Origin: Antedon mediterranea
Lineage: Eukaryota > Animalia > Echinodermata
Assembly (NCBI RefSeq): GCF_964355755.1
Contig: NC_092674.1
Coordinates: forward strand, 15,686,001-15,750,000
Direction of reading: 5' to 3'
DNA length: 64,000 nt
The translations under genes were made by a program, and so were the position numbers. Below are positions 1 through 64,000 of this stretch, one piece after another. Numbering within the stretch: the first letter of the stretch is position 1; every line of letters begins with the position of its first letter. The notes beneath the pieces were generated by a model that made no database searches, was not told the origin of the DNA, and was given only the letters and a program-made list of their open reading frames with translations.

Positions 1-707
1 TCGCTGCAATTCAAGTGGTTTATGGATTGGAGATCTAGCTCCATCGGTGCATTGCGTGATATCGTATACAGGTATGCCACCCACTCGTTGTAAGTGTTGG
101 ATGTTACGTGGTACTTCGTTCCATTCACTATAATGATATATGGCAGATAGTATTGCCAACCGTCTGTCAATCGATACCTATAACAAGAAAACAACATTAT
201 TTATTAATAACGATGATCATGTAAATAAATAATAAGGATAATCAATGGTATTTCTGTTAAAATTACAAATGTAAGGAGCATTACTAGTAAAATGACAAAA
301 GTATTGTAACCGAATAAGTAATGTAAGTAAGTTGCAGGCAGTGAGTTTTATTTAAGAAAAGGTTATTACAAATAATGTGGTAGAAAGAAGTTTCGTATCG
401 ATCATTAAATTACCTGTAAAGGCCAACATTGTTATTGCAATGAATAAGTTGGTTTAATAATGTAAATCACATACCTGTGTCTGTCAACCTTTTCGATATA
501 CGGAGATTCATTGAAGATCTGTCGAACACATTCTCTGACATTCCTCATATTATACTTCTCCGGACAAATTTTATCAATAATGTGCAGCACGTTTAGAGAA
601 CCGCTGGTAGTATCTGGACAACGGAGAAGAGCCGCCACAACAAGTTCTTGAAATGAGAGAGGCATCATCAATGTATCGGTGAGATCGGAGAACATCATGC
701 AAGACAT
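1..707 (-). CDS. Forkhead/winged-helix-like two-exon gene, partial copy (exon 1 707..475; exon 2 from 177, running off the window)
   Basis: Same structure as the 1716..2567 copy; S66N allele. Confidence 0.65.
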
Positions 708-779
708 ATTTAGGTTATTCGTCGTTCGGATAATAGTCGAATGGTAGCTTTTCAGATAATTCAGTTGACTTTAATAGTT

Positions 780-814
780 GAATGCCGTAGAAATCAAAGG
801 CACACCATTTTATA
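780..814 (-). promoter_or_regulatory. Predicted Pol II core promoter of the forkhead-like gene: TATAAAA (814..808) plus Inr-like GCATTC (A at 783); repeated in each unit
   Basis: The first T of TATAAAA is 31 nt upstream of the A in CA+1TTC, the canonical TATA-Inr spacing. ATG follows 76 nt later at 707. Confidence 0.6.
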
Positions 815-857
815 AATGTCTTTGTCGGTTAGATATTAATGAAAGAACAAGAAAAAC

Positions 858-931
858 ACAATAGAAACAATGGCTGCGTTGAGTAACGCGGGCGCAATCG
901 CAACAATAAACAATTTTAAAACAATAGAAAC
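858..931. promoter_or_regulatory. Cluster of Sox-type AACAAT motifs and one Fox-type ATAAACA in the divergent intergenic region
   Basis: AACAAT at 866, 902, 909 and 920; ACAATAGAAAC direct repeat at 858 and 921; ATAAACA at 906-912. Function is inferred only. Confidence 0.3.
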
Positions 932-1124
932 GGTAAAGCAAAGAAAGCAGATGACACTTTAATGATTTGTCGGTATGAAATTACAACTTCCAATACTATT
1001 AAAAACAACTAGCATTTAAATTTAGTTGATATGAAAATATGTTTGAGAATAGACTACAGTTAATGTAAGTTACAGAAGAGTATATTACTATTTACATTAT
1101 GACACTGTAACTGAATATAAATAC

Positions 1125-1150
1125 CAGAATGACACTTGTACAACGATACC
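1125..1150 (+). promoter_or_regulatory. Expected position of the U1 proximal sequence element (PSE)
   Basis: Positional inference (about -65 to -45 from U1 +1 at 1192). Contains ATGACACT, also found at 951 and 1099. PSE sequence is lineage-specific, so it cannot be verified by eye. Confidence 0.3.
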
Positions 1151-1191
1151 AAGCCAATATGTCAGCTAAGAAGGTGGTATGGCGTTTAAGC

Positions 1192-1357
1192 ATACTTACC
1201 TGGCACAGGAGCGACTTTGATCAGGAAGGAATGTCCTCCCAAGATGAGGCCTCAGCATTGCACACACGGCTGCGGTTGACCCTTGCGATTCCCCCAAACG
1301 TGGGGAACTCGGGTGTATAATTTATGGTAGCGGGGGACTGCGTTCGCGCTAACCCCC
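1192..1357 (+). ncRNA. U1: U1 spliceosomal snRNA
   Basis: 5' ATACTTACCTGG; SL1 GGAG-GAC-TTT/GATCAGGAAG loop/GAA-GTC-CTCC; SL2 loop ATTGCAC (U1A site); SL3 TTCCCC-CAAACGT-GGGGAA; Sm site AATTTATGG (1319-1327); SL4 GGGGGACTGCGTTCGCGCTAACCCC. 3' end uncertain by about 2 nt. Confidence 0.98.
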
Positions 1358-1715
1358 ACCCCAATTCGACATTAATATTAGATAAGCCTATGCAGTTCAC
1401 GATAATCGTTAGTTTAATTAAGAACACTTGATATATAACTATTTATGGTTACATTATCTGTTTTGAAACTTTGTTGGTTTGTAACTATTTATTTTCCCTT
1501 AACAACTATTGGTATAGCATATTGACAGGCGTTGAACGCTTCATAATTATTTCGAAGCGTACGAAGAATAATATCAAACTCTAGATTAAACAAAATCAAG
1601 TAGTCTATTATAGAACTTAGGTATTTAAATAATTTTATTACTTTCTGTTAAACGATAATTATATTTCACTTACAATATGTATTAAATGCTATTTATTTAT
1701 AGATATTTTATTTAT

Positions 1716-2567
1716 TTACATGTCATATTGTTCTTTTCGAAGAAGTTTGGCGATAGAAAACCTTTGACATTTTAGACTCAATGATGAAGACGTAGTATGT
1801 ACAGCGTTTAATTGTTCTGTTTCAGTTTGTAAGCAATGCTGTTTTTCTTCGCCATTTCTATCGCTGCAATTCAAGTGGTTTATGGATTGGAGATCTAGCT
1901 CCATCGGTGCATTGCGTGATATCGTATACAGGTATGCCACCCACTCGTTGTAAGTGTTGGATGTTACGTGGTACTTCGTTCCATTCACTATAATGATATA
2001 TGGCAGATAGTATTGCCAACCGTCTGTCAATCGATACCTATAACAAGAAAACAACATTATTTATTAATAACGATGATCATGTAAATAAATAATAAGGATA
2101 ATCAATGGTATTTCTGTTAAAATTACAAATGTAAGGAGCATTACTAGTAAAATGACAAAAGTACTGTAACCGAATAAGAAATGTAAGTAAGTTGCAGGCA
2201 GTGAGTTTTATTTAAGAAAAGGTTATTACAAATAATGTGGTAGAAAGAAGTTTCGTATCGATCAGTAAATTACCTCTAAAGGCCAACATTGTTATTGCAA
2301 TGAATAAGTTGGTTTAATAATGTAAATCACATACCTGTGTCTGTCAACCTTTTCGATATACGGAGATTCACTGAAGATCTGTCGAACACATTCTCTGACA
2401 TTCCTCATATTATACTTCTCCGGACAAATTTTATCAATAATGTGCAGCACGTTTAGAGAACCGCTGGTAGTATCTGGACAACGGAGAAGAGCCGCCACAA
2501 CAAGTTCTTGAAATGAGAGAGGCATCATCAATGTATCGGTGAGATCGGAGAACATCATGCAAGACAT
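1716..2567 (-). CDS. Predicted 184-aa divergent forkhead/winged-helix-like protein with C-terminal eh1-like motif; exon 1 2567..2335, intron 2334..2038, exon 2 2037..1716
   Basis: Donor CAG|GTATGT and acceptor TTTTCTTGTTATAG|G are both phase 2, so the 91-aa and 113-aa ORFs join in frame. PLSFQELVVAALLRCP...ICP...RECVRQIFSESPYIEKVDR resembles the forkhead pattern PYSYxxLIxxAIxxSP...FP...xNSIRHNLSxxxxFxKVxR. FSIAKLL near the C-terminus; AATAAA directly after the stop. Confidence 0.72.
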
Positions 2568-3051
2568 ATTTAGGTTATTCGTCGTTCGGATAATAGTCGA
2601 ATGGTAGCTTTTCAGATAATTCAGTTGACTTTAATAGTTGAATGCCGTAGAAATCAAAGGCACACCATTTTATAAATGTCTTTGTCGGTTAGATATTAAT
2701 GAAAGAACAAGAAAAACACAATAGAAACAATGGCTGCGTTGAGTAACGCGGGCGCAATCGCAACAATAAACAATTTTAAAACAATAGAAACGGTAAAGCA
2801 AAGAAAGCAGATGACACTTTAATGATTTGTCGGTATGAAATTACAACTTCCAATACTATTAAAAACAACTAGCATTTAAATTTAGTTGATATGAAAATAT
2901 GTTTGAGAATAGACTACAGTTAATGTAAGTTACAGAAGAGTATATTACTATTTACATTATGACACTGTAACTGAATATAAATACCAGAATGACACTTGTA
3001 CAACGATACCAAGCCAATATGTCAGCTAAGAAGGTGGTATGGCGTTTAAGC

Positions 3052-3217
3052 ATACTTACCTGGCACAGGAGCGACTTTGATCAGGAAGGAATGTCCTCCC
3101 AAGATGAGGCCTCAGCATTGCACACACGGCTGCGGTTGACCCTTGCGATTCCCCCAAACGTGGGGAACTCGGGTGTATAATTTATGGTAGCGGGGGACTG
3201 CGTTCGCGCTAACCCCC
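3052..3217 (+). ncRNA. U1: U1 snRNA
   Basis: Same as the 1192 copy. Confidence 0.97.
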
Positions 3218-3575
3218 ACCCCAATTCGACATTAATATTAGATAAGCCTATGCAGTTCACGATAATCGTTAGTTTAATTAAGAACACTTGATATATAACT
3301 ATTTATGGTTACATTATCTGTTTTGAAACTTTGTTGGTTTGTAACTATTTATTTTCCCTTAACAACTATTGGTATAGCATATTGACAGGCGTTGAACGCT
3401 TCATAATTATTTCGAAGCGTACGAAGAATAATATCAAACTCTAGATTAAACAAAATCAAGTAGTCTATTATAGAACTTAGGTATTTAAATAATTTTATTA
3501 CTTTCTGTTAAACGATAATTATATTTCACTTACAATATGTATTAAATGCTATTTATTTATAGATACTTTATTTAT

Positions 3576-4427
3576 TTACATGTCATATTGTTCTTTTCGA
3601 AGAAGTTTGGCGATAGAAAACCTTTGACATTTTAGACTCAATGATGAAGACGTAGTATGTACAGCGTTTAATTGTTCTGTTTCAGTTTGTAAGCAATGCT
3701 GTTTTTCTTCGCCATTTCTATCGCTGCAATTCAAGTGGTTTATGGATTGGAGATCTAGCTCCATCGGTGCATTGCGTGATATCGTATACAGGTATGCCAC
3801 CCACTCGTTGTAAGTGTTGGATGTTACGTGGTACTTCGTTCCATTCACTATAATGATATATGGCAGATAGTATTGCCAACCGTCTGTCAATCGATACCTA
3901 TAACAAGAAAACAACATTATTTATTAATAACGATGATCATGTAAATAAATAATAAGGATAATCAATGGTATTTCTGTTAAAATTACAAATGTAAGGAGCA
4001 TTACTAGTAAAATGACAAAAGTACTGTAACCGAATAAGAAATGTAAGTAAGTTGCAGGCAGTGAGTTTTATTTAAGAAAAGGTTATTACAAATAATGTGG
4101 TAGAAAGAAGTTTCGTATCGATCAGTAAATTACCTCTAAAGGCCAACATTGTTATTGCAATGAATAAGTTGGTTTAATAATGTAAATCACATACCTGTGT
4201 CTGTCAACCTTTTCGATATACGGAGATTCACTGAAGATCTGTCGAACACATTCTCTGACATTCCTCATATTATACTTCTCCGGACAAATTTTATCAATAA
4301 TGTGCAGCACGTTTAGAGAACCGCTGGTAGTATCTGGACAACGGAGAAGAGCCGCCACAACAAGTTCTTGAAATGAGAGAGGCATCATCAATGTATCGGT
4401 GAGATCGGAGAACATCATGCAAGACAT
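3576..4427 (-). CDS. Forkhead-like two-exon gene, intact copy
   Basis: Same splice sites and frame as 1716..2567. Confidence 0.7.
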
Positions 4428-4911
4428 ATTTAGGTTATTCGTCGTTCGGATAATAGTCGAATGGTAGCTTTTCAGATAATTCAGTTGACTTTAATAGTTG
4501 AATGCCGTAGAAATCAAAGGCACACCATTTTATAAATGTCTTTGTCGGTTAGATATTAATGAAAGAACAAGAAAAACACAATAGAAACAATGGCTGCGTT
4601 GAGTAACGCGGGCGCAATCGCAACAATAAACAATTTTAAAACAATAGAAACGGTAAAGCAAAGAAAGCAGATGACACTTTAATGATTTGTCGGTATGAAA
4701 TTACAACTTCCAATACTATTAAAAACAACTAGCATTTAAATTTAGTTGATATGAAAATATGTTTGAGAATAGACTACAGTTAATGTAAGTTACAGAAGAG
4801 TATATTACTATTTACATTATGACACTGTAACTGAATATAAATACCAGAATGACACTTGTACAACGATACCAAGCCAATATGTCAGCTAAGAAGGTGGTAT
4901 GGCGTTTAAGC

Positions 4912-5077
4912 ATACTTACCTGGCACAGGAGCGACTTTGATCAGGAAGGAATGTCCTCCCAAGATGAGGCCTCAGCATTGCACACACGGCTGCGGTTGAC
5001 CCTTGCGATTCCCCCAAACGTGGGGAACTCGGGTGTATAATTTATGGTAGCGGGGGACTGCGTTCGCGCTAACCCCC
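4912..5077 (+). ncRNA. U1: U1 snRNA
   Basis: Same as the 1192 copy. Confidence 0.97.
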
Positions 5078-5435
5078 ACCCCAATTCGACATTAATATTA
5101 GATAAGCCTATGCAGTTCACGATAATCGTTAGTTTAATTAAGAACACTTGATATATAACTATTTATGGTTACATTATCTGTTTTGAAACTTTGTTGGTTT
5201 GTAACTATTTATTTTCCCTTAACAACTATTGGTATAGCATATTGACAGGCGTTGAACGCTTCATAATTATTTCGAAGCGTACGAAGAATAATATCAAACT
5301 CTAGATTAAACTAAATCAAGTAGTCTATTATAGAACTTAGGTATTTAAATAATTTTATTACTTTCTGTTAAACGATAATTATATTTCACTTACAATATGT
5401 ATTAAATGCTATTTATTTATAGATATTTTATTTAT

Positions 5436-6287
5436 TTACATGTCATATTGTTCTTTTCGAAGAAGTTTGGCGATAGAAAACCTTTGACATTTTAGACTCA
5501 ATGATGAAGACGTAGTATGTACAGCGTTTAATTGTTCTGTTTCAGTTTGTAAGCAATGCTGTTTTTCTTTGCCATTTCTATCGCTGCAATTCAAGTGGTT
5601 TATGGATTGGAGATCTAGCTCCATCGGTGCATTGCGTGATATCGTATACAGGTATGCCACCCACTCGTTGTAAGTGTTGGATGTTACGTGGTACTTCGTT
5701 CCATTCACTATAATGATATATGGCAGATAGTATTGCCAACCGTCTGTCAATCGATACCTATAACAAGAAAACAACATTATTTATTAATAACGATGATCAT
5801 GTAAATAAATAATAAGGATAATCAATGGTATTTCTGTTAAAATTACAAATGTAAGGAGCATTACTAGTAAAATGACAAAAGTACTGTAACCGAATAAGAA
5901 ATGTAAGTAAGTTGCAGGCAGTGAGTTTTATTTAAGAAAAGGTTATTACAAATAATGTGGTAGAAAGAAGTTTCGTATCGATCAGTAAATTACCTCTAAA
6001 GGCCAACATTGTTATTGCAATGAATAAGTTGGTTTAATAATGTAAATCACATACCTGTGTCTGTCAACCTTTTCGATATACGGAGATTCACTGAAGATCT
6101 GTCGAACACATTCTCTGACATTCCTCATATTATACTTCTCCGGACAAATTTTATCAATAATGTGCAGCACGTTTAGAGAACCGCTGGTAGTATCTGGACA
6201 ACGGAGAAGAGCCGCCACAACAAGTTCTTGAAATGAGAGAGGCATCATCAATGTATCGGTGAGATCGGAGAACATCATGCAAGACAT
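5436..6287 (-). CDS. Forkhead-like two-exon gene, intact copy (E>K in exon 2)
   Basis: Same structure. Confidence 0.7.
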
Positions 6288-6771
6288 ATTTAGGTTATTC
6301 GTCGTTCGGATAATAGTCGAATGGTAGCTTTTCAGATAATTCAGTTGACTTTAATAGTTGAATGCCGTAGAAATCAAAGGCACACCATTTTATAAATGTC
6401 TTTGTCGGTTAGATATTAATGAAAGAACAAGAAAAACACAATAGAAACAATGGCTGCGTTGAGTAACGCGGGCGCAATCGCAACAATAAACAATTTTAAA
6501 ACAATAGAAACGGTAAAGCAAAGAAAGCAGATGACACTTTAATGATTTGTCGGTATGAAATTACAACTTCCAATACTATTAAAAACAACTAGCATTTAAA
6601 TTTAGTTGATATGAAAATATGTTTGAGAATAGACTACAGTTAATGTAAGTTACAGAAGAGTATATTACTATTTACATTATGACACTGTAACTGAATATAA
6701 ATACCAGAATGACACTTGTACAACGATACCAAGCCAATATGTCAGCTAAGAAGGTGGTATGGCGTTTAAGC

Positions 6772-6937
6772 ATACTTACCTGGCACAGGAGCGACTTTGA
6801 TCAGGAAGGAATGTCCTCCCAAGATGAGGCCTCAGCATTGCACACACGGCTGCGGTTGACCCTTGCGATTCCCCCAAACGTGGGGAACTCGGGTGTATAA
6901 TTTATGGTAGCGGGGGACTGCGTTCGCGCTAACCCCC
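6772..6937 (+). ncRNA. U1: U1 snRNA
   Basis: Same as the 1192 copy. Confidence 0.97.
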
Positions 6938-7295
6938 ACCCCAATTCGACATTAATATTAGATAAGCCTATGCAGTTCACGATAATCGTTAGTTTAATTA
7001 AGAACACTTGATATATAACTATTTATGGTTACATTATCTGTTTTGAAACTTTGTTGGTTTGTAACTATTTATTTTCCCTTAACAACTATTGGTATAGCAT
7101 ATTGACAGGCGTTGAACGCTTCATAATTATTTCGAAGCGTACGAAGAATAATATCAAACTCTAGATTAAACAAAATCAAGTAGTCTATTATAGAACTTAG
7201 GTATTTAAATAATTTTATTACTTTCTGTTAAACGATAATTATATTTCACTTACAATATGTATTAAATGCTATTTATTTATAGATATTTTATTTAT

Positions 7296-8147: not shown

Positions 8148-8631
8148 ATTTAGGTTATTCGTCGTTCGGATAATAGTCGAATGGTAGCTTTTCAGATAAT
8201 TCAGTTGACTTTAATAGTTGAATGCCGTAGAAATCAAAGGCACACCATTTTATAAATGTCTTTGTCGGTTAGATATTAATGAAAGAACAAGAAAAACACA
8301 ATAGAAACAATGGCTGCGTTGAGTAACGCGGGCGCAATCGCAACAATAAACAATTTTAAAACAATAGAAACGGTAAAGCAAAGAAAGCAGATGACACTTT
8401 AATGATTTGTCGGTATGAAATTACAACTTCCAATACTATTAAAAACAACTAGCATTTAAATTTAGTTGATATGAAAATATGTTTGAGAATAGACTACAGT
8501 TAATGTAAGTTACAGAAGAGTATATTACTATTTACATTATGACACTGTAACTGAATATAAATACCAGAATGACACTTGTACAACGATACCAAGCCAATAT
8601 GTCAGCTAAGAAGGTGGTATGGCGTTTAAGC

Positions 8632-37874: not shown

Positions 37875-38040
37875 ATACTTACCTGGCACAGGAGCGACTT
37901 TGACCAGGAAGGAATGTCCTCTCAAGATGAGGCCTCAGCATTGCACACACGGCTGCGGTTGACCCTTGCGATTCCCCCAAACGTGGGGAACTCGGGTGTA
38001 TAATTTATGGTAGCGGGGGACTGCGTTCGCGCTAACCCCC
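37875..38040 (+). ncRNA. U1: U1 snRNA variant (C48U; SL1 loop GACCAGGAAG)
   Basis: tgaccaggaa at 37901. Confidence 0.95.
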
Positions 38041-38398
38041 ACCCCAATTCGACATTAATATTAGATAAGCCTATGCAGTTCACGATAATCGTTAGTTTAA
38101 TTAAGAACACTTGATATATAACTATTTATGGTTACATTATCTGTTTTGAAACTTTGTTGGTTTGTAACTATTTATTTTCCCTTAACAACTATTGGTATAG
38201 CATATTGACAGGCGTTGAACGCTTCATAATTATTTCGAAGCGTACGAAGAATAATATCAAACTCTAGATTAAACAAAATCAAGTAGTCTATTATAGAACT
38301 TAGGTATTTAAATAATTTTATTACTTTCTGTTAAACGATAATTATATTTCACTTACAATATGTATTAAATGCTATTTATTTATAGATACTTTATTTAT

Positions 38399-38990
38399 TT
38401 ACATGTCATATTGTTCTTTTCGAAGAAGTTTGGCGATAGAAAACCTTTGACATTTTAGACTCAATGATGAAGACGTAGTATGTACAGCGTTTAATTGTTC
38501 TGTTTCAGTTTGTAAGCAATGCTGTTTTTCTTCGCCATTTCTATCGCTGCAATTCAAGTGGTTTATGGATTGGAGATCTAGCTCCATCGGTGCATTGCGT
38601 GATATCGTATACAGGTATGCCACCCACTCGTTGTAAGTGTTGGATGTTACGTGGTACTTCGTTCCATTCACTATAATGATATATGGCAGATAGTATTGCC
38701 AACCGTCTGTCAATCGATACCTATAACAAGAAAACAACATTATTTATTAATAACGATGATCATGTAAATAAATAATAAGGATAATCAATGGTATTTCTGT
38801 TAAAATTACAAATGTAAGGAGCATTACTAGTAAAATGACAAAAGTACTGTAACCGAATAAGAAATGTAAGTAAGTTGCAGGCAGTGAGTTTTATTTAAGA
38901 AAAGGTTATTACAAATAATGTGGTAGAAAGAAGTTTCGTATCGATCAGTAAATTACCTCTAAAGGACAACATTGTTATTGCAATGAATAA
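38399..38990 (-). pseudogene. Forkhead-like gene remnant (exon 2 and most of the intron only)
   Basis: The 882-bp deletion removes the donor, exon 1 and the promoter. Confidence 0.65.
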
Positions 38991-39018
38991 GCGGGGGACT
39001 GCGTTCGCGCTAACCCCC
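38990..39018 (+). pseudogene. U1 remnant (stem-loop 4 only)
   Basis: TGAATA-AG-CGGGGGACTGCGTTCGCGC junction with AG microhomology. Confidence 0.9.
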
Positions 39019-49349: not shown

Positions 49350-49961
49350 ATTTAGGTTATTCGTCGTTCGGATAATAGTCGAATGGTAGCTTTTCAGATA
49401 ATTCAGTTGACTTTAATAGTTGAATGCCGTAGAAATCAAAGGCACACCATTTTATAAATGTCTTTGTCGGTTAGATATTAATGAAAGAACAAGAAAAACA
49501 CAATAGAAACAATGGCTGCGTTGAGTAACGCGGGCGCAATCGCAACAATAAACAATTTTAAAACAATAGAAACGGTAAAGCAAAGAAAGCAGATGACACT
49601 TTAATGATTTGTCGGTATGAAATTACAACTTCCAATACTATTAAAAACAACTAGCATTTAAATTTAGTTGATATGAAAATATGTTTGAGAATAGACTACA
49701 GTTAATGTAAGTTACAGAAGAGTATATTACTATTTACATTATGACACTGTAACTGAATATAAATACCAGAATGACACTTGTACAACGATACCAAGCCAAT
49801 ATGTCAGCTAAGAAGGTGGTATGGCGTTTAAGCATACTTACCTGGCACAGGAGCGACTTTGATCAGGAAGGAATGTCCTCCCAAGATGAGGCCTCAGCAT
49901 TGCACACACGGCTGCGGTTGACCCTTGCGATTCCCCCAAACGTGGGGAACTCGGGTGTATA

Positions 49962-51459
49962 TTTATTTATTTATTTATTTGGAATTACACCTTTAGATCG
50001 GTGGCACACTTAGCACAAAGGTGCATCCTTCACAATATAAAATATAACAATTAACAGAAAAGTAAAAAAAGGCAAAAGCAACTATCAACCCCTATCCTAC
50101 CCCCCCCCCCCCCCAATTTACATCGATACATACAGTAGATCATTACTTTACACAATGAATACAAAACAAGATATAGTAAAAGTGTATAAAATAAAATAAA
50201 ATCAGCTGATAAACACAGCTTATTACGAAAAACCCCCAACTCCTCCCCCCTCCCACTTTTTTTTCAATTTACTTAATGTAGCAATGTAGATAACATAGTT
50301 ATTGAGTCATGGAATTCAGTGAATCATTTCGAAATTGCCATGCTTGTTTTAGGTATCTTTTACAAAAACTATCTAAAATATGTTCACACTCTTCATCAAT
50401 TAAATTATCTGAGTATCCCAAAATATATTTAAGTTTGTCATTTTCAAGAGAAGTATAAAAAGTATCAAACATATCTTTGCTGCCATTTCTATACATATCC
50501 ACATATAAATTAAATAATTCCTGATTACGTATATTATTTAAAGCTGGACAATTAAGGATGAAATGATGGATGTCTTCGTCCGAATTTGTACCGCACAATT
50601 TACATTTTTTATTATTATCAATATTCCAATTTGCAGTTCTATCATACAAAGGTAGAGTATTTGAACGAGCTTTAAATTTTAATGCAGCACCTTCAAAATT
50701 AGTTTTATCAATTAAGTAATTTTCAAGTCCAGGTTTTGATTTTAATGTTTCATAGATGTGGAGACTTGATTTATTTTGTAATTCAATTCTCCATTCATCT
50801 ATCATTATATAGTTAAGTTTTCTTAAGATTTCAGAAATTGGAAAGTAGACTTCTTTATAATTTGAGAGAGTGGTGAAAATATTTTTGGATTCACAATTAC
50901 ACTTCAAGAGAATATCGTTTATACAAGATAGAAACTTATACCTTAAGTCTTTAAATTCACAATTAAGTTGTAGCATTCCAATAAACATAATTTTTGGCCA
51001 TCGATAGTTTTCCATCTTTATAATTCTATGGAAGTATTTCATACGAAGAGCGTTATGAATCTCGTTAATTGGAGACCAGCCAAGCTCTCCATATAAGGCG
51101 GCACAAGGTGTATTTCGAGGTGCTTTTAAGATATAACGTGCCATTTGGAGCTGGAGACGCTCTAGTTTATCTATATCTATTCTACTTAAAGAGCACCATA
51201 CTGAACAACCATAGTTGATAGATGGGAGAACTATCGATCTCCACAGAGTATCCCCATAATATACTCTGTTAAAGTTATCAAAGCTACTGATAATTGATTT
51301 AACGTACGCTATTAATCTTTGACCTTTTTTTATAACATTCTCAATTTGTATATGGTCATTTAATTTACGAGAAATATGTACACCGAGATATTTATATGAT
51401 TCAGTTTCAGATATAAAGCCATTACCTAATTTCCATTGTCTTACTTTATCAACATCAAC
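49962..51459 (-). mobile_element. 5'-truncated non-LTR retrotransposon (LINE; tentatively RTEX-like) with (TAAA)n tail and 5-bp GTATA target-site duplication
   Basis: (ATTT)n at 49962-49980; GTATA at 49957-49961 and 51460-51464; unit length increased by 1503 bp; RT C-terminal ORF. Confidence 0.93.
50299..51459 (-). CDS. C-terminal fragment (386 aa) of LINE ORF2: end of RT/thumb and CCHC zinc knuckle
   Basis: YKYLG, LPSINYGCSVW, LERLQ..ARYIL, ALYGELGW and CKLC..EDIHHFILNC motifs. The first 15 aa of the listed ORF are antisense U1 sequence. Confidence 0.9.
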   Translation of the reverse strand, partial: VDVDKVRQWKLGNGFISETESYKYLGVHISRKLNDHIQIENVIKKGQRLIAYVKSIISSFDNFNRVYYGDTLWRSIVLPSINYGCSVWCSLSRIDIDKLERLQLQMARYILKAPRNTPCAALYGELGWSPINEIHNALRMKYFHRIIKMENYRWPKIMFIGMLQLNCEFKDLRYKFLSCINDILLKCNCESKNIFTTLSNYKEVYFPISEILRKLNYIMIDEWRIELQNKSSLHIYETLKSKPGLENYLIDKTNFEGAALKFKARSNTLPLYDRTANWNIDNNKKCKLCGTNSDEDIHHFILNCPALNNIRNQELFNLYVDMYRNGSKDMFDTFYTSLENDKLKYILGYSDNLIDEECEHILDSFCKRYLKQAWQFRNDSLNSMTQ

Positions 51460-53196: not shown

Positions 53197-53362
53197 ATAC
53201 TTACCTGGCACAGGAGCGACTTTGATCAGGAAGGAATGTCCTCCCAAGATGAGGCCTCAGCATTGCACACACGGCTGCGGTTGACCCTTGCGATTCCCCC
53301 AAACGTGGGGAACTCGGGTGTATAATTTATGGTAGCGGGGGACTGCGTTCGCGCTAACCCCA
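53197..53362 (+). ncRNA. U1: U1 snRNA (3'-end C>A)
   Basis: taaccccaacccc. Confidence 0.96.
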
Positions 53363-53720
53363 ACCCCAATTCGACATTAATATTAGATAAGCCTATGCAG
53401 TTCACGATAATCGTTAGTTTAATTAAGAACACTTGATATATAACTATTTATGGTTACATTATCTGTTTTGAAACTTTGTTGGTTTGTAACTATTTATTTT
53501 CCCTTAACAACTATTGGTATAGCATATTGACAGGCGTTGAACGCTTCATAATTATTTCGAAGCGTACGAAGAATAATATCAAACTCTAGATTAAACAAAA
53601 TCAAGTAGTCTATTATAGAACTTACGTATTTAAATAATTTTATTACTTTCTGTTAAACGATAATTATATTTCACTTACAATATGTATTAAATGCTATTTA
53701 TTTATAGATATTTTATTTAT

Positions 53721-54572
53721 TTACATGTCATATTGTTCTTGTCGAAGAAGTTTGGCGATAGAAAACCTTTGACATTTTAGACTCAATGATGAAGACGTAG
53801 TATGTACAGCGTTTAATTGTTCTGTTTCAGTTTGTAAGCAATGCTGTTTTTCTTCGCCATTTCTATCGCTGCAATTCAAGTGGTTTATGGATTGGAGATC
53901 TAGCTCCATCGGTGCATTGCGTGATATCGTATACAGGTATGCCACCCACTCGTTGTAAGTGTTGGATGTTACGTGGTACTTCGTTCCATTCACTATAATG
54001 ATATATGGCAGATAGTATTGCCAACCGTCTGTCAATCGATACCTATAACAAGAAAAGAACATTATTTATTAATAACGATGATCATGTAAATAAATAATAA
54101 GGATAATCAATGGTATTTCTGTTAAAATTACAAATGTAAGGAGCATTACTAGTAAAATGACAAAAGTACTGTAACCGAATAAGTAATGTAAGTAAGTTGC
54201 AGGCAGTGAGTTTTATTTAAGAAAAGGTTATTACAAATAATGTGGTAGAAAGAAGTTTCGTATCGATCAGTAAATTACCTGTAAAGGCCAACATTGTTAT
54301 TGCAATGAATAAGTTGGTTTAATAATGTAAATCACATACCTGTGTCTGTCAACCTTTTCGATATACGGAGATTCACTGAAGATCTGACGAACACATTCTC
54401 TGACATTCCTCATATTATACTTCTCCGGACAAATTGTATCAATAATGTGTAGCACGTTTATAGAACCGCTGGTAGTATCTGGACAACGGAGAAGAGCCGC
54501 CACAACAAGTTCTTGAAATGAGAGAGGCATCATCAATGTATCGGTGAGATCGGAGAACATCATGCAAGACAT
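53721..54572 (-). CDS. Forkhead-like two-exon gene, intact copy (L38I, K46T)
   Basis: Same structure. Confidence 0.7.
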
Positions 54573-55056
54573 ATTTAGGTTATTCGTCGTTCGGATAATA
54601 GTCGAATGGTAGCTTTTCAGATAATTCAGTTGACTTTAATAGTTGAATGCCGTAGAAATCAAAGGCACACCATTTTATAAATGTCTTTGTCGGTTAGATA
54701 TTAATGAAAGAACAAGAAAAACACAATAGAAACAATGGCTGCGTTGAGTAACGCGGGCGCAATCGCAACAATAAACAATTTTAAAACAATAGAAACGGTA
54801 AAGCAAAGAAAGCAGATGACACTTTAATGATTTGTCGGTATGAAATTACAACTTCCAATACTATTAAAAACAACTAGCATTTAAATTTAGTTGATATGAA
54901 AATATGTTTGAGAATAGACTACAGTTAATGTAAGTTACAGAAGAGTATATTACTATTTACATTATGACACTGTAACTGAATATAAATACCAGAATGACAC
55001 TTGTACAACGATACCAAGCCAATATGTCAGCTAAGAAGGTGGTATGGCGTTTAAGC

Positions 55057-55222
55057 ATACTTACCTGGCACAGGAGCGACTTTGATCAGGAAGGAATGTC
55101 CTCCCAAGATGAGGCCTCAGCATTGCACACACGGCTGCGGTTGACCCTTGCGATTCCCCCAAACGTGGGGAACTCGGGTGTATAATTTATGGTAGCGGGG
55201 GACTGCGTTCGCGCTAACCCCA
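55057..55222 (+). ncRNA. U1: U1 snRNA (3'-end C>A)
   Basis: Same motifs. Confidence 0.96.
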
Positions 55223-55580
55223 ACCCCAATTCGACATTAATATTAGATAAGCCTATGCAGTTCACGATAATCGTTAGTTTAATTAAGAACACTTGATATA
55301 TAACTATTTATGGTTACATTATCTGTTTTGAAACTTTGTTGGTTTGTAACTATTTATTTTCCCTTAACAACTATTGGTATAGCATATTGACAGGCGTTGA
55401 ACGCTTCATAATTATTTCGAAGCGTACGAAGAATAATATCAAACTCTAGATTAAACAAAATCAAGTAGTCTATTATAGAACTTACGTATTTAAATAATTT
55501 TATTACTTTCTGTTAAACGATAATTATATTTCACTTACAATATGTATTAAATGCTATTTATTTATAGATATTTTATTTAT

Positions 55581-56436
55581 TTACATGTCATATTGTTCTT
55601 GTCGAAGAAGTTTGGCGATAGAAAACCTTTGACATTTTAGACTCAATGATGAAGACGTAGTATGTACAGCGTTTAATTGTTCTGTTTCAGTTTGTAAGCA
55701 ATGCTGTTTTTCTTCGCCATTTCTATCGCTGCAATTCAAGTGGTTTATGGATTGGAGATCTAGCTCCATCGGTGCATTGCGTGATATCGTATACAGGTAT
55801 GCCACCCACTCGTTGTAAGTGTTGGATGTTACGTGGTACTTCGTTCCATTCATTCACTATAATGATATATGGCAGATAGTATTGCCAACCGTCTGTCAAT
55901 CGATACCTATAACAAGAAAACAACATTATTTATTAATAACGATGATCATGTAAATAAATAATAAGGATAATCAATGGTATTTCTGTTAAAATTACAAATG
56001 TAAGGAGCATTAATAGTAAAATGACAAAAGTACTGTAACCGAATAAGTAATGTAAGTAAGTTGCAGGCAGTGAGTTTTATTTAAGAAAAGGTTATTACAA
56101 ATAATGTGGTAGAAAGAAGTTTCGTATCGATCAGTAAATTACCTGTAAAGGCCAACATTGTTATTGCAATGAATAAGTTGGTTTAATAATGTAAATCACA
56201 TACCTGTGTCTGTCAACCTTTTCGATATACGGAGATTCACTGAAGATCTGACGAACACATTCTCTGACATTCCTCATATTATACTTCTCCGGACAAATTG
56301 TATCAATAATGTGCAGCACGTTTAGAGAACCGCTGGTAGTATCTGGACAACGGAGAAGAGCCGCCACAACAAGTTCTTGAAATGAGAGAGGCATCATCAA
56401 TGTATCGGTGAGATCGGAGAACATCATGCAAGACAT
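55581..56436 (-). pseudogene. Forkhead-like gene with 4-bp duplication frameshift in exon 2
   Basis: CATTCATT at 55847-55854. Confidence 0.6.
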
Positions 56437-56920
56437 ATTTAGGTTATTCGTCGTTCGGATAATAGTCGAATGGTAGCTTTTCAGATAATTCAGTTGACTT
56501 TAATAGTTGAATGCCGTAGAAATCAAAGGCACACCATTTTATAAATGTCTTTGTCGGTTAGATATTAATGAAAGAACAAGAAAAACACAATAGAAACAAT
56601 GGCTGCGTTGAGTAACGCGGGCGCAATCGCAACAATAAACAATTTTAAAACAATAGAAACGGTAAAGCAAAGAAAGCAGATGACACTTTAATGATTTGTC
56701 GGTATGAAATTACAACTTCCAATACTATTAAAAACAACTAGCATTTAAATTTAGTTGATATGAAAATATGTTTGAGAATAGACTACAGTTAATGTAAGTT
56801 ACAGAAGAGTATATTACTATTTACATTATGACACTGTAACTGAATATAAATACCAGAATGACACTTGTACAACGATACCAAGCCAATATGTCAGCTAAGA
56901 AGGTGGTATGGCGTTTAAGC

Positions 56921-57086
56921 ATACTTACCTGGCACAGGAGCGACTTTGATCAGGAAGGAATGTCCTCCCAAGATGAGGCCTCAGCATTGCACACACGGCT
57001 ACGGTTGACCCTTGCGATTCCCCCAAACGTGGGGAACTCGGGTGTATAATTTATGGTAGCGGGGGACTGCGTTCGCGCTAACCCCC
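56921..57086 (+). ncRNA. U1: U1 snRNA (SL2 stem G>A at 57001)
   Basis: cggctacgg. Confidence 0.95.
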
Positions 57087-57444
57087 ACCCCAATTCGACA
57101 TTAATATTAGATAAGCCTATGCAGTTCACGATAATCGTTAGTTTAATTAAGAACACTTGATATATAACTATTTATGGTTACATTATCTGTTTTGAAACTT
57201 TGTTGGTTTGTAACTATTTATTTTCCCTTAACAACTATTGGTATAGCATATTGACAGGCGTTGAACGCTTCATAATTATTTCGAAGCGTACGAAGAATAA
57301 TATCAAACTCTAGATTAAACAAAATCAAGTAGTCTATTATAGAACTTACGTATTTAAATAATTTTATTACTTTCTGTTAAACGATAATTATATTTCACTT
57401 ACAATATGTATTAAATGCTATTTATTTATAGATATTTTATTTAT

Positions 57445-58296
57445 TTACATGTCATATTGTTCTTGTCGAAGAAGTTTGGCGATAGAAAACCTTTGACATT
57501 TTAGACTCAATGATGAAGACGTAGTATGTACAGCGTTTAATTGTTCTGTTTCAGTTTGTAAGCAATGCTGTTTTTCTTCGCCATTTCTATCGCTGCAATT
57601 CAAGTGGTTTATGGATTGGAGATCTAGCTCCATCGGTGCATTGCGTGATATCGTATACAGGTATGCCACCCACTCGTTGTAAGTGTTGGATGTTACGTGG
57701 TACTTCGTTCCATTCACTATAATGATATATGGCAGATAGTATTGCCAACCGTCTGTCAATCGATACCTATAACAAGAAAACAACATTATTTATTAATAAC
57801 GATGATCATGTAAATAAATAATAAGGATAATCAATGGTATTTCTGTTAAAATTATAAATGTAAGGAGCATTACTAGTAAAATGACAAAAGTACTGTAACC
57901 GAATAAGTAATGTAAGTAAGTTGCAGGCAGTGAGATTTATTTAAGAAAAGGTTATTACAAATAATGTGGTAGAAAGAAGTTTCGTATCGATCAGTAAATT
58001 ACCTGTAAAGGCCAACATAGTTATTGCAATGAATAAGTTGGTTTAATAATGTAAATCACATACCTGTGTCTGTCAACCTTTTCGATATACGGAGATTCAC
58101 TGAAGATCGGACGAACACATTCTCTGACATTCCCCATATTATACTTCTCCGGACAAATTTTATCAATAATGTGCAGCACGTATAGAGAACCGCTGGTAGT
58201 ATCTGGACAACGGAGAAGAGCCGCCACAACAAGTTCTTGAAATGAGAGAGGCATAATCAATGTATCGGTGAGATCGGAGAACATCATGCAAGACAT
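57445..58296 (-). CDS. Forkhead-like gene, ORF intact but TATA box disrupted by an insertion
   Basis: Substitutions M14I, N39Y, R55G, Q63P; insert at 58401. Confidence 0.6.
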
Positions 58297-58400
58297 ATTT
58301 AGGTTATTCGTCGTTCGGATAATAGTCGAATGGTAGCTTTTCAGATAATTCAGTTGACTTTAATAGTTGAATGCCGTAGAAATCAAAGGCACACCATTTT

Positions 58401-58662
58401 ATTATTATTATTATTATTGTTATTATTTATTGCCAAAAACCAGTTACAAACAAACAAAACACAGAAACTAAGGGAGTAGGCAGGAACCTAAAAGTGAACC
58501 TAATCACTATAACAAGAGTTCAGGTTCCGTACTCCCAAAGTAACAACAATGATATAAAATAAACTATATAAAAATATTTAAAAAACAAATAGACGAATCA
58601 ACAGTGTCAATATAAAATAAACGGATAAAGTACATAATAGTAAAAGTACATTATAGTAAACA
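58401..58662 (-). mobile_element. 262-bp retroposon 3' fragment with (TAA)n tail and subterminal stem-loop
   Basis: (ATT)n at the left end; inverted repeats GGGAGTA/TACTCCC and GGAACCT/AGGTTCC at 58472-58536; absent from the other units except 60523. Confidence 0.75.
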
Positions 58663-59042
58663 ATAAATGTCTTTGTCGGTTAGATATTAATGAAAGAACA
58701 AGAAAAACACAATAGAAACAATGGCTGCGTTGAGTAACGCGGGCGCAATCGCAACAATAAACAATTTTAAAACAATAGAAACGGTAAAGCAAAGAAAGCA
58801 GATGACACTTTAATGATTTGTCGGTATGAAATTACAACTTCCAATACTATTAAAAACAACTAGCATTTAAATTTAGTTGATATGAAAATATGTTTGAGAA
58901 TAGACTACAGTTAATGTAAGTTACAGAAGAGTATATTACTATTTACATTATGACACTGTAACTGAATATAAATACCAGAATGACACTTGTACAACGATAC
59001 CAAGCCAATATGTCAGCTAAGAAGGTGGTATGGCGTTTAAGC

Positions 59043-59208
59043 ATACTTACCTGGCACAGGAGCGACTTTGATCAGAAAGGAATGTCCTCCCAAGATGAGG
59101 CCTCAGCATTGCACACACGGCTGCGGTTGACCTTTGCGATTCCCCCAAACGTGGGGAACTCGGGTGTATAATTTATGGTAGCGGGGGACTGCGTTCGCGC
59201 TAACCCCA
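59043..59208 (+). ncRNA. U1: U1 snRNA variant (SL1 loop GAUCAGAAAG; SL2 C>U; 3' C>A)
   Basis: atcagaaagg; gacctttgc. Confidence 0.94.
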
Positions 59209-59566
59209 ACCCCAATTCGACATTAATATTAGATAAGCCTATGCAGTTCACGATAATCGTTAGTTTAATTAAGAACACTTGATATATAACTATTTATGGT
59301 TACATTATCTGTTTTGAAACTTTGTTGGTTTGTAACTATTTATTTTCTCTTAACAACTATTGGTATAGCATATTGACAGGCGTTGAACGCTTCATAATTA
59401 TTTCGAAGCGTACGAAGAATAATATCAAACTCTAGATTAAACAAAATCAAGTAGTCTATTATAGAACTTACGTATTTAAATAATTTTATTACTTTCTGTT
59501 AAACGATAATTATATTTCACTTACAATATGTATTAAATGCTATTTATTTATAGATATTTTATTTAT

Positions 59567-60418
59567 TTACATGTCATATTGTTCTTGTCGAAGAAGTTTG
59601 GCGATAGAAAACCTTTGACATTTTAGACTCAATGATGAAGACGTAGTATGTACAGCGTTTAATTGTTCTGTTTCAGTTTGTAAGCAATGCTGTTTTTCTT
59701 CGCCATTTCTATCGCTGCAATTCAAGTGGTTTATGGATTGGAGATCTAGCTCCATCGGTGCATTGCGTGATATCGTATACAGGTATGCCACCCACTCGTT
59801 GTAAGTGTTGGATGTTACGTGGTACTTCGTTCCATTCACTATAATGATATATGGCAGATAGTATTGCCAACCGTCTGTCAATCGATACCTATAACAAGAA
59901 AACAACATTATTTATTAATAACGATGATCATGTAAATAAATAATAAGGATAATCAATGGTATTTCTGTTAAAATTATAAATGTAAGGAGCATTACTAGTA
60001 AAATGACAAAAGTACTGTAACCGAATAAGTAATGTAAGTAAGTTGCAGGCAGTGAGTTTTATTTAAGAAAAAATTATTACAAATAATGTGGTAGAAAGAA
60101 GTTTCGTATCGATCAGTAAATTACCTGTAAAGGCCAACATAGTTATTGCAATGAATAAGTTGGTTTAATAATGTAAATCACATACCTGTGTCTGTCAACC
60201 TTTTCGATATACGGAGATTCACTGAAGATCGGACGAACACATTCTCTGACATTCCCCATATTATACTTCTCCGGACAAATTTTATCAATAATGTGCAGCA
60301 CGTTTAGAGAACCGCTGGTAGTATCTGGACAACGGAGAAGAGCCGCCACAACAAGTTCTTGAAATGAGAGAGGCATAATCAATGTATCGGTGAGATCGGA
60401 GAACATCATGCAAGACAT
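59567..60418 (-). CDS. Forkhead-like gene, ORF intact but TATA box disrupted by an insertion
   Basis: M14I, R55G, Q63P; insert at 60523. Confidence 0.6.
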
Positions 60419-60522
60419 ATTTAGGTTATTCGTCGTTCGGATAATAGTCGAATGGTAGCTTTTCAGATAATTCAGTTGACTTTAATAGTTGAATGCCGTA
60501 GAAATCAAAGGCACACCATTTT

Positions 60523-60783
60523 ATTATTATTATTATTATTGTTATTATTTATTGCCAAAAACCAGTTACAAACAAACAAACACAGAAACTAAGGGAGTAG
60601 GCAGGAACCTAAAAGTGAACCTAATCACTATAACAAGAGTTCAGGTTCCGTACTCCCAAAGTAACAACAATGATATAAAATAAACTATATAAAAATATTT
60701 AAAAAACAAATAGACGAATCAACAGTGTCAATATAAAATAAACGGATAAAGTACATAATAGTAAAAGTACATTATAGTAAACA
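60523..60783 (-). mobile_element. 261-bp second copy of the retroposon fragment (same site; duplicated with its unit)
   Basis: Near-identical to 58401..58662, one A shorter. Confidence 0.75.
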
Positions 60784-61163
60784 ATAAATGTCTTTGTCGG
60801 TTAGATATTAATGAAAGAACAAGAAAAACACAATAGAAACAATGGCTGCGTTGAGTAACGCGGGCGCAATCGCAACAATAAACAATTTTAAAACAATAGA
60901 AACGGTAAAGCAAAGAAAGCAGATGACACTTTAATGATTTGTCGGTATGAAATTACAACTTCCAATACTATTAAAAACAACTAGCATTTAAATTTAGTTG
61001 ATATGAAAATATGTTTGAGAATAGACTACAGTTAATGTAAGTTACAGAAGAGTATATTACTATTTACATTATGACACTGTAACTGAATATAAATACCAGA
61101 ATGACACTTGTACAACGATACCAAGCCAATATGTCAGCTAAGAAGGTGGTATGGCGTTTAAGC

Positions 61164-61329
61164 ATACTTACCTGGCACAGGAGCGACTTTGATCAGAAAG
61201 GAATGTCCTCCCAAGATGAGGCCTCAGCATTGCACACACGGCTGCGGTTGACCCTTGCGATTCCCCCAAACGTGGGGAACTCGGGTGTATAATTTATGGT
61301 AGCGGGGGACTGCGTTCGCGCTAACCCCA
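61164..61329 (+). ncRNA. U1: U1 snRNA variant (SL1 loop GAUCAGAAAG)
   Basis: gatcagaaag. Confidence 0.94.
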
Positions 61330-61687
61330 ACCCCAATTCGACATTAATATTAGATAAGCCTATGCAGTTCACGATAATCGTTAGTTTAATTAAGAACACT
61401 TGATATATAACTATTTATGGTTACATTATCTGTTTTGAAACTTTGTTGGTTTGTAACTATTTATTTTCCCTTAACAACTATTGGTATAGCATATTGACAG
61501 GCGTTGAACGCTTCATAATTATTTCGAAGCGTACGAAGAATAATATCAAACTCTAGATTAAACAAAATCAAGTAGTCTATTATAGAACTTACGTATTTAA
61601 ATAATTTTATTACTTTCTGTTAAACGATAATTATATTTCACTTACAATATGTATTAAATGCTATTTATTTATAGATATTTTATTTAT

Positions 61688-62539
61688 TTACATGTCATAT
61701 TGTTCTTGTCGAAGAAGTTTGGCGATAGAAAACCTTTGACATTTTAGACTCAATGATGAAGACGTAGTATGTACAGCGTTTAATTGTTCTGTTTCAGTTT
61801 GTAAGCAATGCTGTTTTTCTTCGCCATTTCTATCGCTGCAATTCAAGTGGTTTATGGATTGGAGATCTAGCTCCATCGGTGCATTGCGTGATATCGTATA
61901 CAGGTATGCCACCCACTCGTTGTAAGTGTTGGATGTTACGTGGTACTTCGTTCCATTCACTATAATGATATATGGCAGATAGTATTGCCAACCGTCTGTC
62001 AATCGATACCTATAACAAGAAAACAACATTATTTATTAATAACGATGATCATGTAAATAAATAATAAGGATAATCAATGGTATTTCTGTTAAAATTACAA
62101 ATGTAAGGAGCATTACTAGTAAAATGACAAAAGTACTGTAACCGAATAAGTAATGTAAGTAAGTTGCAGGCAGTGAGTTTTATTTAAGAAAAGGTTATTA
62201 CAAATAATGTGGTAGAAAGAAGTTTCGTATCGATCAGTAAATTACCTGTAAAGGCCAACATTGTTATTGCAATGAATAAGTTGGTTTAATAATGTAAATC
62301 ACATACCTGTGTCTGTCAACCTTTTCGATATACGGAGATTCACTGAAGATCTGACGAACACATTCTCTGACATTCCTCATATTATACTTCTCCGGACAAA
62401 TTGTATCAATAATGTGCAGCACGTTTAGAGAACCGCTGGTAGTATCTGGACAACGGAGAAGAGCCGCCACAACAAGTTCTTGAAATGAGAGAGGCATCAT
62501 CAATGTATCGGTGAGATCGGAGAACATCATGCAAGACAT
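61688..62539 (-). CDS. Forkhead-like two-exon gene, intact copy (K46T)
   Basis: Same structure. Confidence 0.7.
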
Positions 62540-63023
62540 ATTTAGGTTATTCGTCGTTCGGATAATAGTCGAATGGTAGCTTTTCAGATAATTCAGTTGA
62601 CTTTAATAGTTGAATGCCGTAGAAATCAAAGACACACCATTTTATAAATGTCTTTGTCGGTTAGATATTAATGAAAGAACAAGAAAAACACAATAGAAAC
62701 AATGGCTGCGTTGAGTAACGCGGGCGCAATCGCAACAATAAACAATTTTAAAACAATAGAAACGGTAAAGCAAAGAAAGCAGATAACACTTTAATGATTT
62801 GTCGGTATGAAATTACAACTTCCAATACTATTAAAAACAACTAGCATTTAAATTTAGTTGATATGAAAATATGTTTGAGAATAGACTACAGTTAATGTAA
62901 GTTACAGAAGAGTATATTACTATTTACATTATGACACTGTAACTGAATATAAATACCAGAATGACACTTGTACAACGATACCAAGCCAATATGTCAGCTA
63001 AGAAGGTGGTATGGCGTTTAAGC

Positions 63024-63189
63024 ATACTTACCTGGCACAGGAGCGACTTTGATCAGAAAGGAATGTCCTCCCAAGATGAGGCCTCAGCATTGCACACACG
63101 GCTGCGGTTGACCCTTGCGATTCCCCCAAACGTGGGGAACTCGGGTGTATAATTTATGGTAGCGGGGGACTGCGTTCGCGCTAACCCCA
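63024..63189 (+). ncRNA. U1: U1 snRNA variant (SL1 loop GAUCAGAAAG)
   Basis: gatcagaaag. Confidence 0.94.
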
Positions 63190-63547
63190 ACCCCAATTCG
63201 ACATTAATATTAGATAAGCCTATGCAGTTCACGATAATCGTTAGTTTAATTAAGAACACTTGATATATAACTATTTATGGTTACATTATCTGTTTTGAAA
63301 CTTTGTTGGTTTGTAACTATTTATTTTCTCTTAACAACTATTGGTATAGCATATTGACAGGCGTTGAACGCTTCATAATTATTTCGAAGCGTACGAAGAA
63401 TAATATCAAACTCTAGATTAAACAAAATCAAGTAGTCTATTATAGAACTTACGTATTTAAATAATTTTATTACTTTCTGTTAAACGATAATTATATTTCA
63501 CTTACAATATGTATTAAATGCTATTTATTTATAGATATTTTATTTAT

Positions 63548-64000
63548 TTACATGTCATATTGTTCTTGTCGAAGAAGTTTGGCGATAGAAAACCTTTGAC
63601 ATTTTAGACTCAATGATGAAGACGTAGTATGTACAGCGTTTAATTGTTCTGTTTCAGTTTGTAAGCAATGTTGTTTTTCTTCGCCATTTCTATCGCTGCA
63701 ATTCAAGTGGTTTATGGATTGGAGATCTAGCTCCATCGGTGCATTGCGTGATATCGTATACAGGTATGCCACCCACTCGTTGTAAGTGTTGGATGTTACG
63801 TGGTACTTCGTTCCATTCACTATAATGATATATGGCAGATAGTATTGCCAACCGTCCTGTCAATCGATACCTATAACAAGAAAACAACATTATTTATTAA
63901 TAACGATGATCATGTAAATAAATAATAAGGATAATCAATGGTATTTCTGTTAAAATTACAAATGTAAGGAGCATTACTAGTAAAATGACAAAAGTACTGT
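63548..64000 (-). pseudogene. Forkhead-like gene exon 2 with 1-bp insertion frameshift; exon 1 lies outside the window
   Basis: accgtcctgt at 63851-63860 (extra C; could be a sequencing error). Confidence 0.5.

Follow-up and report, generated by a model that had tools for sequence, protein, structure and literature searches.

A tandem U1 small nuclear RNA array in the crinoid Antedon mediterranea also carries a lineage-restricted protein gene of predicted forkhead fold

Introduction

Why would a tandem array of U1 small nuclear RNA (snRNA) genes carry, in its repeat units, a protein-coding gene on the opposite strand? The question is posed by a stretch of 64,000 bp from contig NC_092674.1 of Antedon mediterranea (hereafter the window, whose coordinates are used throughout), which is one tandem array from 1 to 64000, with both window ends overrun by the array. 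A previous sequence-only reading of this stretch had described a macrosatellite combining U1 with a protein gene of forkhead-like type, and our analysis upholds that combination, the array by Rfam and the gene by homology. snRNA macrosatellites and protein-gene macrosatellites are each known separately; the Antedon array appears to be a new combination of the two, its snRNA units also containing a real, lineage-restricted gene of predicted forkhead fold.

Results

The repeat unit and its U1 genes

A search with Rfam returned 33 U1 matches (RF00003) in the window, all on the + strand, as had been claimed for every unit, and each scoring over the 69.5-bit gathering threshold; 32 of them reach 118-130 bits, and the remaining one, split by a long interspersed nuclear element (LINE), scores 87 bits. 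The 5' end that pairs with the splice site and the U1A loop are present in 33/33 copies and an uninterrupted Sm site in 32/33, with two copies damaged, one by a 2-bp deletion and the other by the LINE insertion. Together the 33 genes delimit 32 whole U1-to-U1 units, accompanied by two partial units. The 34 or more copies of the sequence-only reading came from dividing window length by unit length, so the large array stands but the figure does not; likewise, most units are indeed spaced at 1,860 bp, head to tail, but the range runs from 1,697 to 3,363 bp. Pairwise divergence of the whole units is low (mean 0.42%, maximum 1.1%), and no higher-order period is evident among them at lags 1-12. Kilobase-sized, head-to-tail and homogenized, each with a gene, the units match the D4Z4/RNU2 type of gene-bearing macrosatellite.

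The main features of one example unit are as follows, with the first U1 copy given for reference; further copies start at 3052, 4912 and so on to 63024.

1192..1358, + strand: U1 snRNA, first copy (RF00003, 130.4 bits, model 1-166)
3052..3218, + strand: U1 snRNA (Rfam), head-to-head partner of the example protein gene
2644..3051, no strand assigned: intergenic region, 408 bp between the predicted starts, the least variable part of the unit
2668..2674, - strand: predicted TATA box, with an initiator (Inr)-like site 31 bp downstream at 2643 (in unit 1, 814 and 783)
2335..2567, - strand: exon 1 coding sequence, residues 1-77, ATG at 2567, with predicted helices 1-3 and the first wing strand
2038..2334, - strand: predicted intron, 297 bp, GT-AG, phase 2, within the predicted wing
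1716..2037, - strand: exon 2 coding sequence, residues 78-184, with the wing end, a hairpin-plus-helix extension, a variable linker, an eh1-type motif and the stop
2024-1917, - strand: conserved hairpin-plus-helix extension, residues 83-118, within exon 2
1740..1760, - strand: eh1-type (Groucho/TLE-binding) motif, residues 171-177, common to all three proteins compared below

The same unit is present in contigs from five sequencing runs belonging to two studies. In one of these runs (X1), a single 1,890-base contig contains U1, the spacer and the two exons with their intron, and its ends join head to tail. Because the unit recurs in contigs of two studies and the X1 contig closes on itself, an assembly artefact is an unlikely source of the linkage, with the caveat that the best-matching run may come from the window's own sample. 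The last units, at 53197-64000, stand apart as a haplotype group of their own, and their alleles predominate in the contigs of X1 and of a second run, X2, which suggests either that the array continues past the window with units of this type or that the samples behind these two runs differ from the window's. CpG dinucleotides show no depletion in the unit (observed/expected 1.12 at 1192-3051), consistent with an unmethylated array.

The array U1 is not the sole U1 type in the genome. A second type, differing from the array type by 16 substitutions and 4 gap letters that lie mostly in stem-loop II (contigs compared over 3051-3208), appears in the listed contigs of three of four runs (X1, X4, X5), and in having a tandem U1 type distinct from another in the same genome the array resembles the early or embryonic U1 arrays of sea urchins and Xenopus. 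The depth of array U1 relative to the other U1 is about 1.7 in one sample (S1) and about 7-12 in another (S2); contig depth is not a copy number, and these ratios hint at several-fold variation in array copy number between samples.

The protein gene and its damaged copies

The minus-strand gene model proposed from the sequence (ATG, GT-AG intron, stop) stands as described, its spliced product has 184 residues, and the earlier count of 24 intact frames is reproduced among the 32 whole units. The splice donor and acceptor are identical in all units scored (28 of 32). What does not survive is the statement that every unit holds a complete gene: eight of 32 frames are broken, and two additional units have a TATA box interrupted by an insertion of 261 or 262 bp. 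The broken frames result from a 13-bp deletion in three units (9341, 16603, 46836), a 163-bp deletion that removes the 3' end in four (10916, 20038, 27315, 44867) and a 4-bp insertion in one, and a 1-bp insertion lies in the frame of the partial unit at the trailing end. Frame and TATA box are both intact in 22/32 units, with one or the other broken in 10/32, and 20/32 have an intact U1 as well. Lesions common to three or four copies each are a sign of relaxed per-copy selection. The AATAAA signal proposed downstream of the stop turns up in 39% of shuffles, no more than chance would give.

The two deletion alleles, found in 7/32 units, would yield predicted products of 120 and 160 residues in which the domain and extension are kept and the eh1 motif is lost; such truncations represent only two events, and chance is possible. 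Neither deletion, nor the LINE-U1 junctions, is seen in the run contigs, which lose rare variants. No spliced joint occurs among the listed contigs of X1, the one run of possible RNA origin, which cover the intron, the spacer and the LINE, and this has no bearing on expression. Nor does a separate locus matching the coding sequence at 85% identity or more appear among three X1 contigs, which can show presence and not absence.

Two homologous proteins

Protein libraries of 5.8 billion and 1.84 billion sequences were searched with word-index methods and, using exon 1, with full HMMER, and exactly two relatives were found: P0001 (250 residues) and an "uncharacterized" protein of 204 residues from the crinoid Anneissia japonica (LOC117100230, XP_033095719.1; here P0002), the sole named relative of this fast-evolving gene. 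Each starts at the corresponding Met and aligns without a break from the exon-1 part to the exon-2 part across the predicted junction, which supports the intron independently of the window, the two homologues being themselves predictions. Their identity to the Antedon protein is 59-64% over exon 1; the Anneissia protein has 59% over exon 1 and 45% over exon 2. All three proteins share the start, domain, extension and eh1-type tail and differ in linker length, as compared at the protein level. All three agree at 26/68 domain columns, 19/36 extension columns, 4/47 linker columns and 6/13 columns surrounding the eh1 motif, a block pattern that, on the aligned sequences, is that of purifying selection. 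Judged by this homology, the protein gene is real.

The linker of P0001 (residues ~140-215) contains a Cys-containing tandem repeat expansion, with the eh1 motif still kept beyond it. Each homologue is on record from one contig, of 1,392,118 bp for Anneissia and 2,283 bp for P0001, the latter being near the size of a repeat unit. Scans of metagenome contigs gave 51 and 223 pattern hits, among which no related locus was confirmed.

A predicted winged helix with an eh1-type tail

The forkhead label of the sequence-only reading has no counterpart at the level of sequence matches (Pfam, PDB) and reappears in the predicted fold. An AlphaFold model of P0002, built on a four-row alignment, has a mean predicted local distance difference test score (pLDDT) of 49, with values of 65-85 over residues 21-90, and contains three helices (18-27, 36-46, 53-66) and a two-strand wing (70-72, 79-81). 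In a Foldseek search with this model the top rows were Fox domains (probability 1.00, E 0.016-0.1), and in a VIA-align search Fox domains took ranks 1-9 of 48,161 representatives (best Z 7.6, root-mean-square deviation 2.5, 84-85 residues aligned). Re-alignment of 998 chains placed Fox domains at ranks 1-39, followed by linker histone at Z 5.8. The top feature matches in the ESM Atlas were forkhead clusters at 0.77-0.78, below its reliability bar, and a feature search with residues 10-118 of P0001 returned only unrelated prokaryotic clusters (0.76-0.77). PDB sequence searches gave no forkhead match; their weak formin and receptor matches were rejected as chance. A viral fold library gave no match below E 0.1, and a single-sequence model restricted to exon 1, which lacked the wing and had a pLDDT of 57.5 and a best Z of 4.3, was set aside.

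Fox proteins read bases through helix-3 Asn(i), Arg(i+3) and His(i+4), according to the available part of PMC9701222. With the helix-3 register set by hand from forkhead spacing and not by a tool, the corresponding residues are Glu59/Arg62/Gln63 in the Antedon protein and Gln/Arg/Lys in that of Anneissia, with a gap in P0001. In this hand register, only the Arg of the three appears kept, the Asn and His being replaced.

Near the C-terminus, each of the three proteins has one eh1-type match at the aligned position, found in 1-2% of shuffles each, where eh1 is defined by Phe at 0, Ser/Thr at 1 and hydrophobic residues at 2, 5 and 6, and Fox proteins typically have their eh1 on the C-terminal side (both from the accessible portion of PMC1939712). 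From fold, helix-3 residues and motif together, the product is likely derived from a forkhead protein, with its base specificity altered or lost and Groucho recruitment predicted, and is not a canonical Fox member; "transcription factor" is a prediction. The FoxH1 class was considered for its acidic helix-3 residue, folded extension and first ESM match, and was not adopted: because FoxH1 structures (Z 5.5-6.4) rank under other Fox structures, no Fox class is assignable. Membership of the linker histone H1/H5 family does not fit either, given a fold Z of 5.8 vs 7.6 for Fox and no lysine-rich tail.

The region between the two starts

The two predicted starts, facing away from each other, lie 408 bp apart, in agreement with an earlier estimate of about 410 bp. 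This region has 5 variant sites where 13.2 are expected and differs from the intron in variant density (p=0.001; p=0.03 in a rotation control), and the 222 bp directly before U1 (2830-3051) have zero variants in 32 units. No other part of the unit is as constrained, which fits a regulatory function. The proposed TATA and Inr elements fared unevenly: a pair 31 bp apart arises in 1.4% of 3,000 shuffles under a relaxed TATA pattern, modestly beyond chance, but was missed by a stricter one. Clusters of Sox- and Fox-like motifs beside the TATA box are not significant (p=0.08-0.32).

Some further features of this region were noted in passing. One 8-mer occurs three times (2811, 2959, 2989), the last ~63 bp before the U1 start, where a proximal sequence element (PSE) is expected; when tested without bias, the triple occurrence falls short of significance, arising in 15% of shuffles. 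A word similar to this 8-mer was seen in a loose end from another locus. A 42-bp stretch (2765-2806) matches other loci in S2 contigs, at several loose ends, and can be read as a dispersed element or a shared regulatory motif.

Variation among copies

Across the unit, variant density falls from 5.7% in the intron through 5.2% in exon 1, 4.8% in U1 and 1.9% in exon 2 to 1.2% between the starts (chi-square p=0.008). The 24 intact copies of the protein gene carry 12 amino-acid-changing and 3 silent variants, for a ratio of nonsynonymous to synonymous polymorphism (pN/pS) of 1.06 on small numbers, and all 32 units carry 14 and 4, so there is no net purifying selection among copies. Helices 2-3, with 31/184 codons, hold 7 of the 14 amino-acid changes (p=0.004), a cluster noticed post hoc that sits in a generally variable stretch including the intron. 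An a priori test of whether changes avoid the invariant columns was not significant (2/12, p=0.36). Overall, the promoter region looks constrained, and neither gene body has clear per-copy selection.

Insertions and rearrangements within the array

Four other features interrupt or rearrange single units.

38012..38989, no strand assigned: partial unit duplication of 978 bp, comprising the U1 3' end, exon 2 and part of the intron
49957..51459, - strand: 5'-truncated non-LTR (long terminal repeat) retrotransposon of 1,503 bp, inserted in one U1 copy at the Sm site (zf-RVT, E=2.7e-7)
58401..58662, - strand: (TAA)n-tailed insertion of 262 bp inside the TATA box of the protein gene
60523..60783: second copy of the (TAA)n-tailed insertion, 261 bp, inside the TATA box of the neighboring unit

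The LINE at 49957-51459 has a (TAAA)n tail, a 386-codon open stretch and an apparent 5-bp target duplication, and its family is abundant in all four runs examined.

Discussion

How the array may be maintained

We put at about one half the probability that this is a concerted tandem array in which U1 and a divergent, lineage-restricted, forkhead-derived gene are co-amplified and which is maintained for U1 dosage. Unequal crossing-over and gene conversion would copy the unit as a whole, since the 978-bp partial duplication and the lesions shared across different backgrounds fit such copying, and the array would likely be retained for U1 dosage with the protein gene copied along. U1 would be transcribed from a PSE-type snRNA promoter directly upstream, and the mRNA in the opposite direction from its own TATA/Inr ~410 bp away, on the shared 408-bp region. 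The eh1-type tail of the product is predicted to recruit Groucho/TLE co-repressors. Because no other copy has been seen in the contigs and the conserved blocks are intact, it is probably the array as a whole that supplies the gene's function, with single copies under relaxed selection and broken ones free to drift. By analogy with the early U1 genes of sea urchins and Xenopus, early co-expression of U1 and the protein gene is likely, and their joint expression in oocytes or early embryos would be a by-product of shared chromatin, the pairing itself being unselected. Hitch-hiking of the protein gene, which the sequence-only reading offered as its alternative, fits the per-copy data (pN/pS 1.06, lesions in three or four copies each) at least as well.

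Several observations weigh against this reading. The U1 body is no better conserved than the intron (8/167 vs 17/297, p=0.84), so it is the promoter on which the argument for an array kept for U1 depends. In the 219 bp of codons 15-36 and 68-118, substitutions are absent where 7.1 would be expected; these blocks, in or at which two frameshifts fall, were picked post hoc and hint at selection on the gene copies. Since the contigs show presence only, a parent gene may exist elsewhere in the genome, though we consider this improbable. As for the forkhead derivation, PF00250 has no Pfam match at E up to 10 with exon 1, exon 2, P0001 and P0002 as separate queries, the fold Z is below 8, the Foldseek E is above 0.01, and the homologue model averages pLDDT 49.

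Alternative explanations

The substitution-free blocks, post hoc as they are, favor an alternative in which U1 and the protein gene are a co-selected cassette, an old pairing kept because the shared control region gives a joint, high-dose burst of U1 and repressor in the oocyte or at zygotic activation. We regard such a cassette as possible, if clearly the weaker explanation: the scarcity of variants between the starts and the array being the only home seen for the gene (in the three X1 contigs) agree with it, and DUX4 offers a precedent as a macrosatellite-borne zygotic factor in the literature portions available, but the neutral pN/pS, the 10/32 units with a broken frame or TATA box, the non-significant Sox/Fox-like clusters and the position of the invariant stretch on the U1 side do not, and, going by relative depth, array size may vary several-fold from one sample to another. 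The boldest version of this idea, that crinoids conserve a two-gene cassette in high copy whose single divergent control region of 408 bp drives both an early-type U1 and a forkhead-derived, Groucho-recruiting repressor of rewired or lost base specificity, an invertebrate DUX4-like burst module coupling spliceosome supply to an egg-to-embryo regulator, is speculative and on balance unlikely; within it, the eh1-lacking truncated copies (7/32 units) could act as built-in antagonists. If it were instead the protein gene that drove amplification, for dosage or through diversifying selection on helices 2-3 in a conflict-like setting, U1 would be the passenger. The clustering of changes in these helices, also the most diverged stretch in P0001, and the existence of other U1 genes in the genome point that way, but the cluster lies within a stretch that is variable through the intron as well, the ratio of changes is neutral rather than above 1, and the invariant 222 bp adjoin U1, which leaves this explanation improbable.

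The neutral ratio and five independent lesions (deletions of 13 and 163 bp, insertions of 4 and 1 bp, and the insertion in the TATA box) would also be expected if a functional single-copy parent lay elsewhere and the array copies were its silent passengers in decay; the majority sequence is nevertheless intact, with splice sites and motif conserved, and no second copy was found among the X1 contigs examined, and we give this explanation very little weight. A separate matter, compatible with any account of the array, is whether the winged helix has a non-Fox origin, such as a linker-histone globular domain. This ancestry would explain the missing sequence-level Fox match, and linker histones have the higher identity (15-18% vs 8-14% for the Fox rows) at Z 5.3-5.8. 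Fox rows are nevertheless ahead by about 2 Z units (7.6 vs 5.8), the protein lacks a basic tail, its domain contains 10 K+R against 9 D+E, and a C-terminal eh1 is a Fox-like trait (PMC1939712, accessible portion), all of which make a non-Fox origin doubtful.

Comparison with known systems

In sea urchins and Xenopus, the early U1 type is the tandem one, and to our knowledge no protein gene lies in the U1 spacers of those arrays. Like them and like primate RNU2, the Antedon array has kilobase-sized units with one snRNA gene each, homogenized copies and another U1 type at a different place in the genome. In both Xenopus and sea urchins, the U1 type in use changes as development proceeds (PMC4291461, available part). 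The RNU2 unit contains Alu, LTR and microsatellite sequence, with no protein gene described in the part of PMC5687341 at hand, and in the accessible text of an RNU2/CCDC200 preprint the gene neighbors the array and is not present once per unit. Conversely, D4Z4/DUX4, RS447/USP17, TAF11-Like and CT47 are macrosatellites with a protein gene per unit and variable copy number, listed in the same part of PMC5687341 without an snRNA gene, unlike the Antedon unit. DUX4 is a retrogene, whereas the Antedon gene has an intron and a repression motif. Mixed multigene units in which snRNA or histone genes are linked with 5S ribosomal DNA provide a third comparison. There, as in Antedon, unrelated genes are co-amplified in each unit, but 5S-linked units pair housekeeping multigene families, while the Antedon partner is a lineage-restricted gene of regulatory type. 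No description of a U1-plus-protein-gene unit, or of the Anneissia gene by name, was found in the open literature, which is weak evidence of absence, most subscription papers, older snRNA-gene papers and supplements lying outside this search.

Among Fox factors, those with a C-terminal eh1 (FoxQ2/QD, FoxH1, FoxA-E, L) resemble the Antedon protein in their winged-helix fold, predicted in the latter, and in the placement of eh1 C-terminal to the domain, and FoxH1 has a folded, conserved extension after the core as well (PMC9701222, available part). The Antedon protein differs from canonical members in lying below Pfam detection, in its replaced helix-3 Asn and His (in the hand register) and in its 30+ near-identical copies. 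Lineage-specific tandem expansions are known for foxQ2 (PMC9539403), as are orphan and tandemly expanded Fox genes more generally (PMC9539403, PMC13666137), in the portions of these sources available.

Implications

With a regulatory-type gene in the units of an snRNA array, the dosage of a developmental regulator could shift with U1 copy number. The array also brings to light an unannotated family of predicted forkhead fold that is invisible to Pfam, would be missed by standard Fox surveys and is so far only crinoid-linked, and crinoids are sister to the remaining echinoderms. Should expression turn out to be early and the linkage to be conserved, the locus would offer a compact test of how TATA and snRNA promoters share one control region, as well as a test for macrosatellite-borne zygotic regulators outside mammals.

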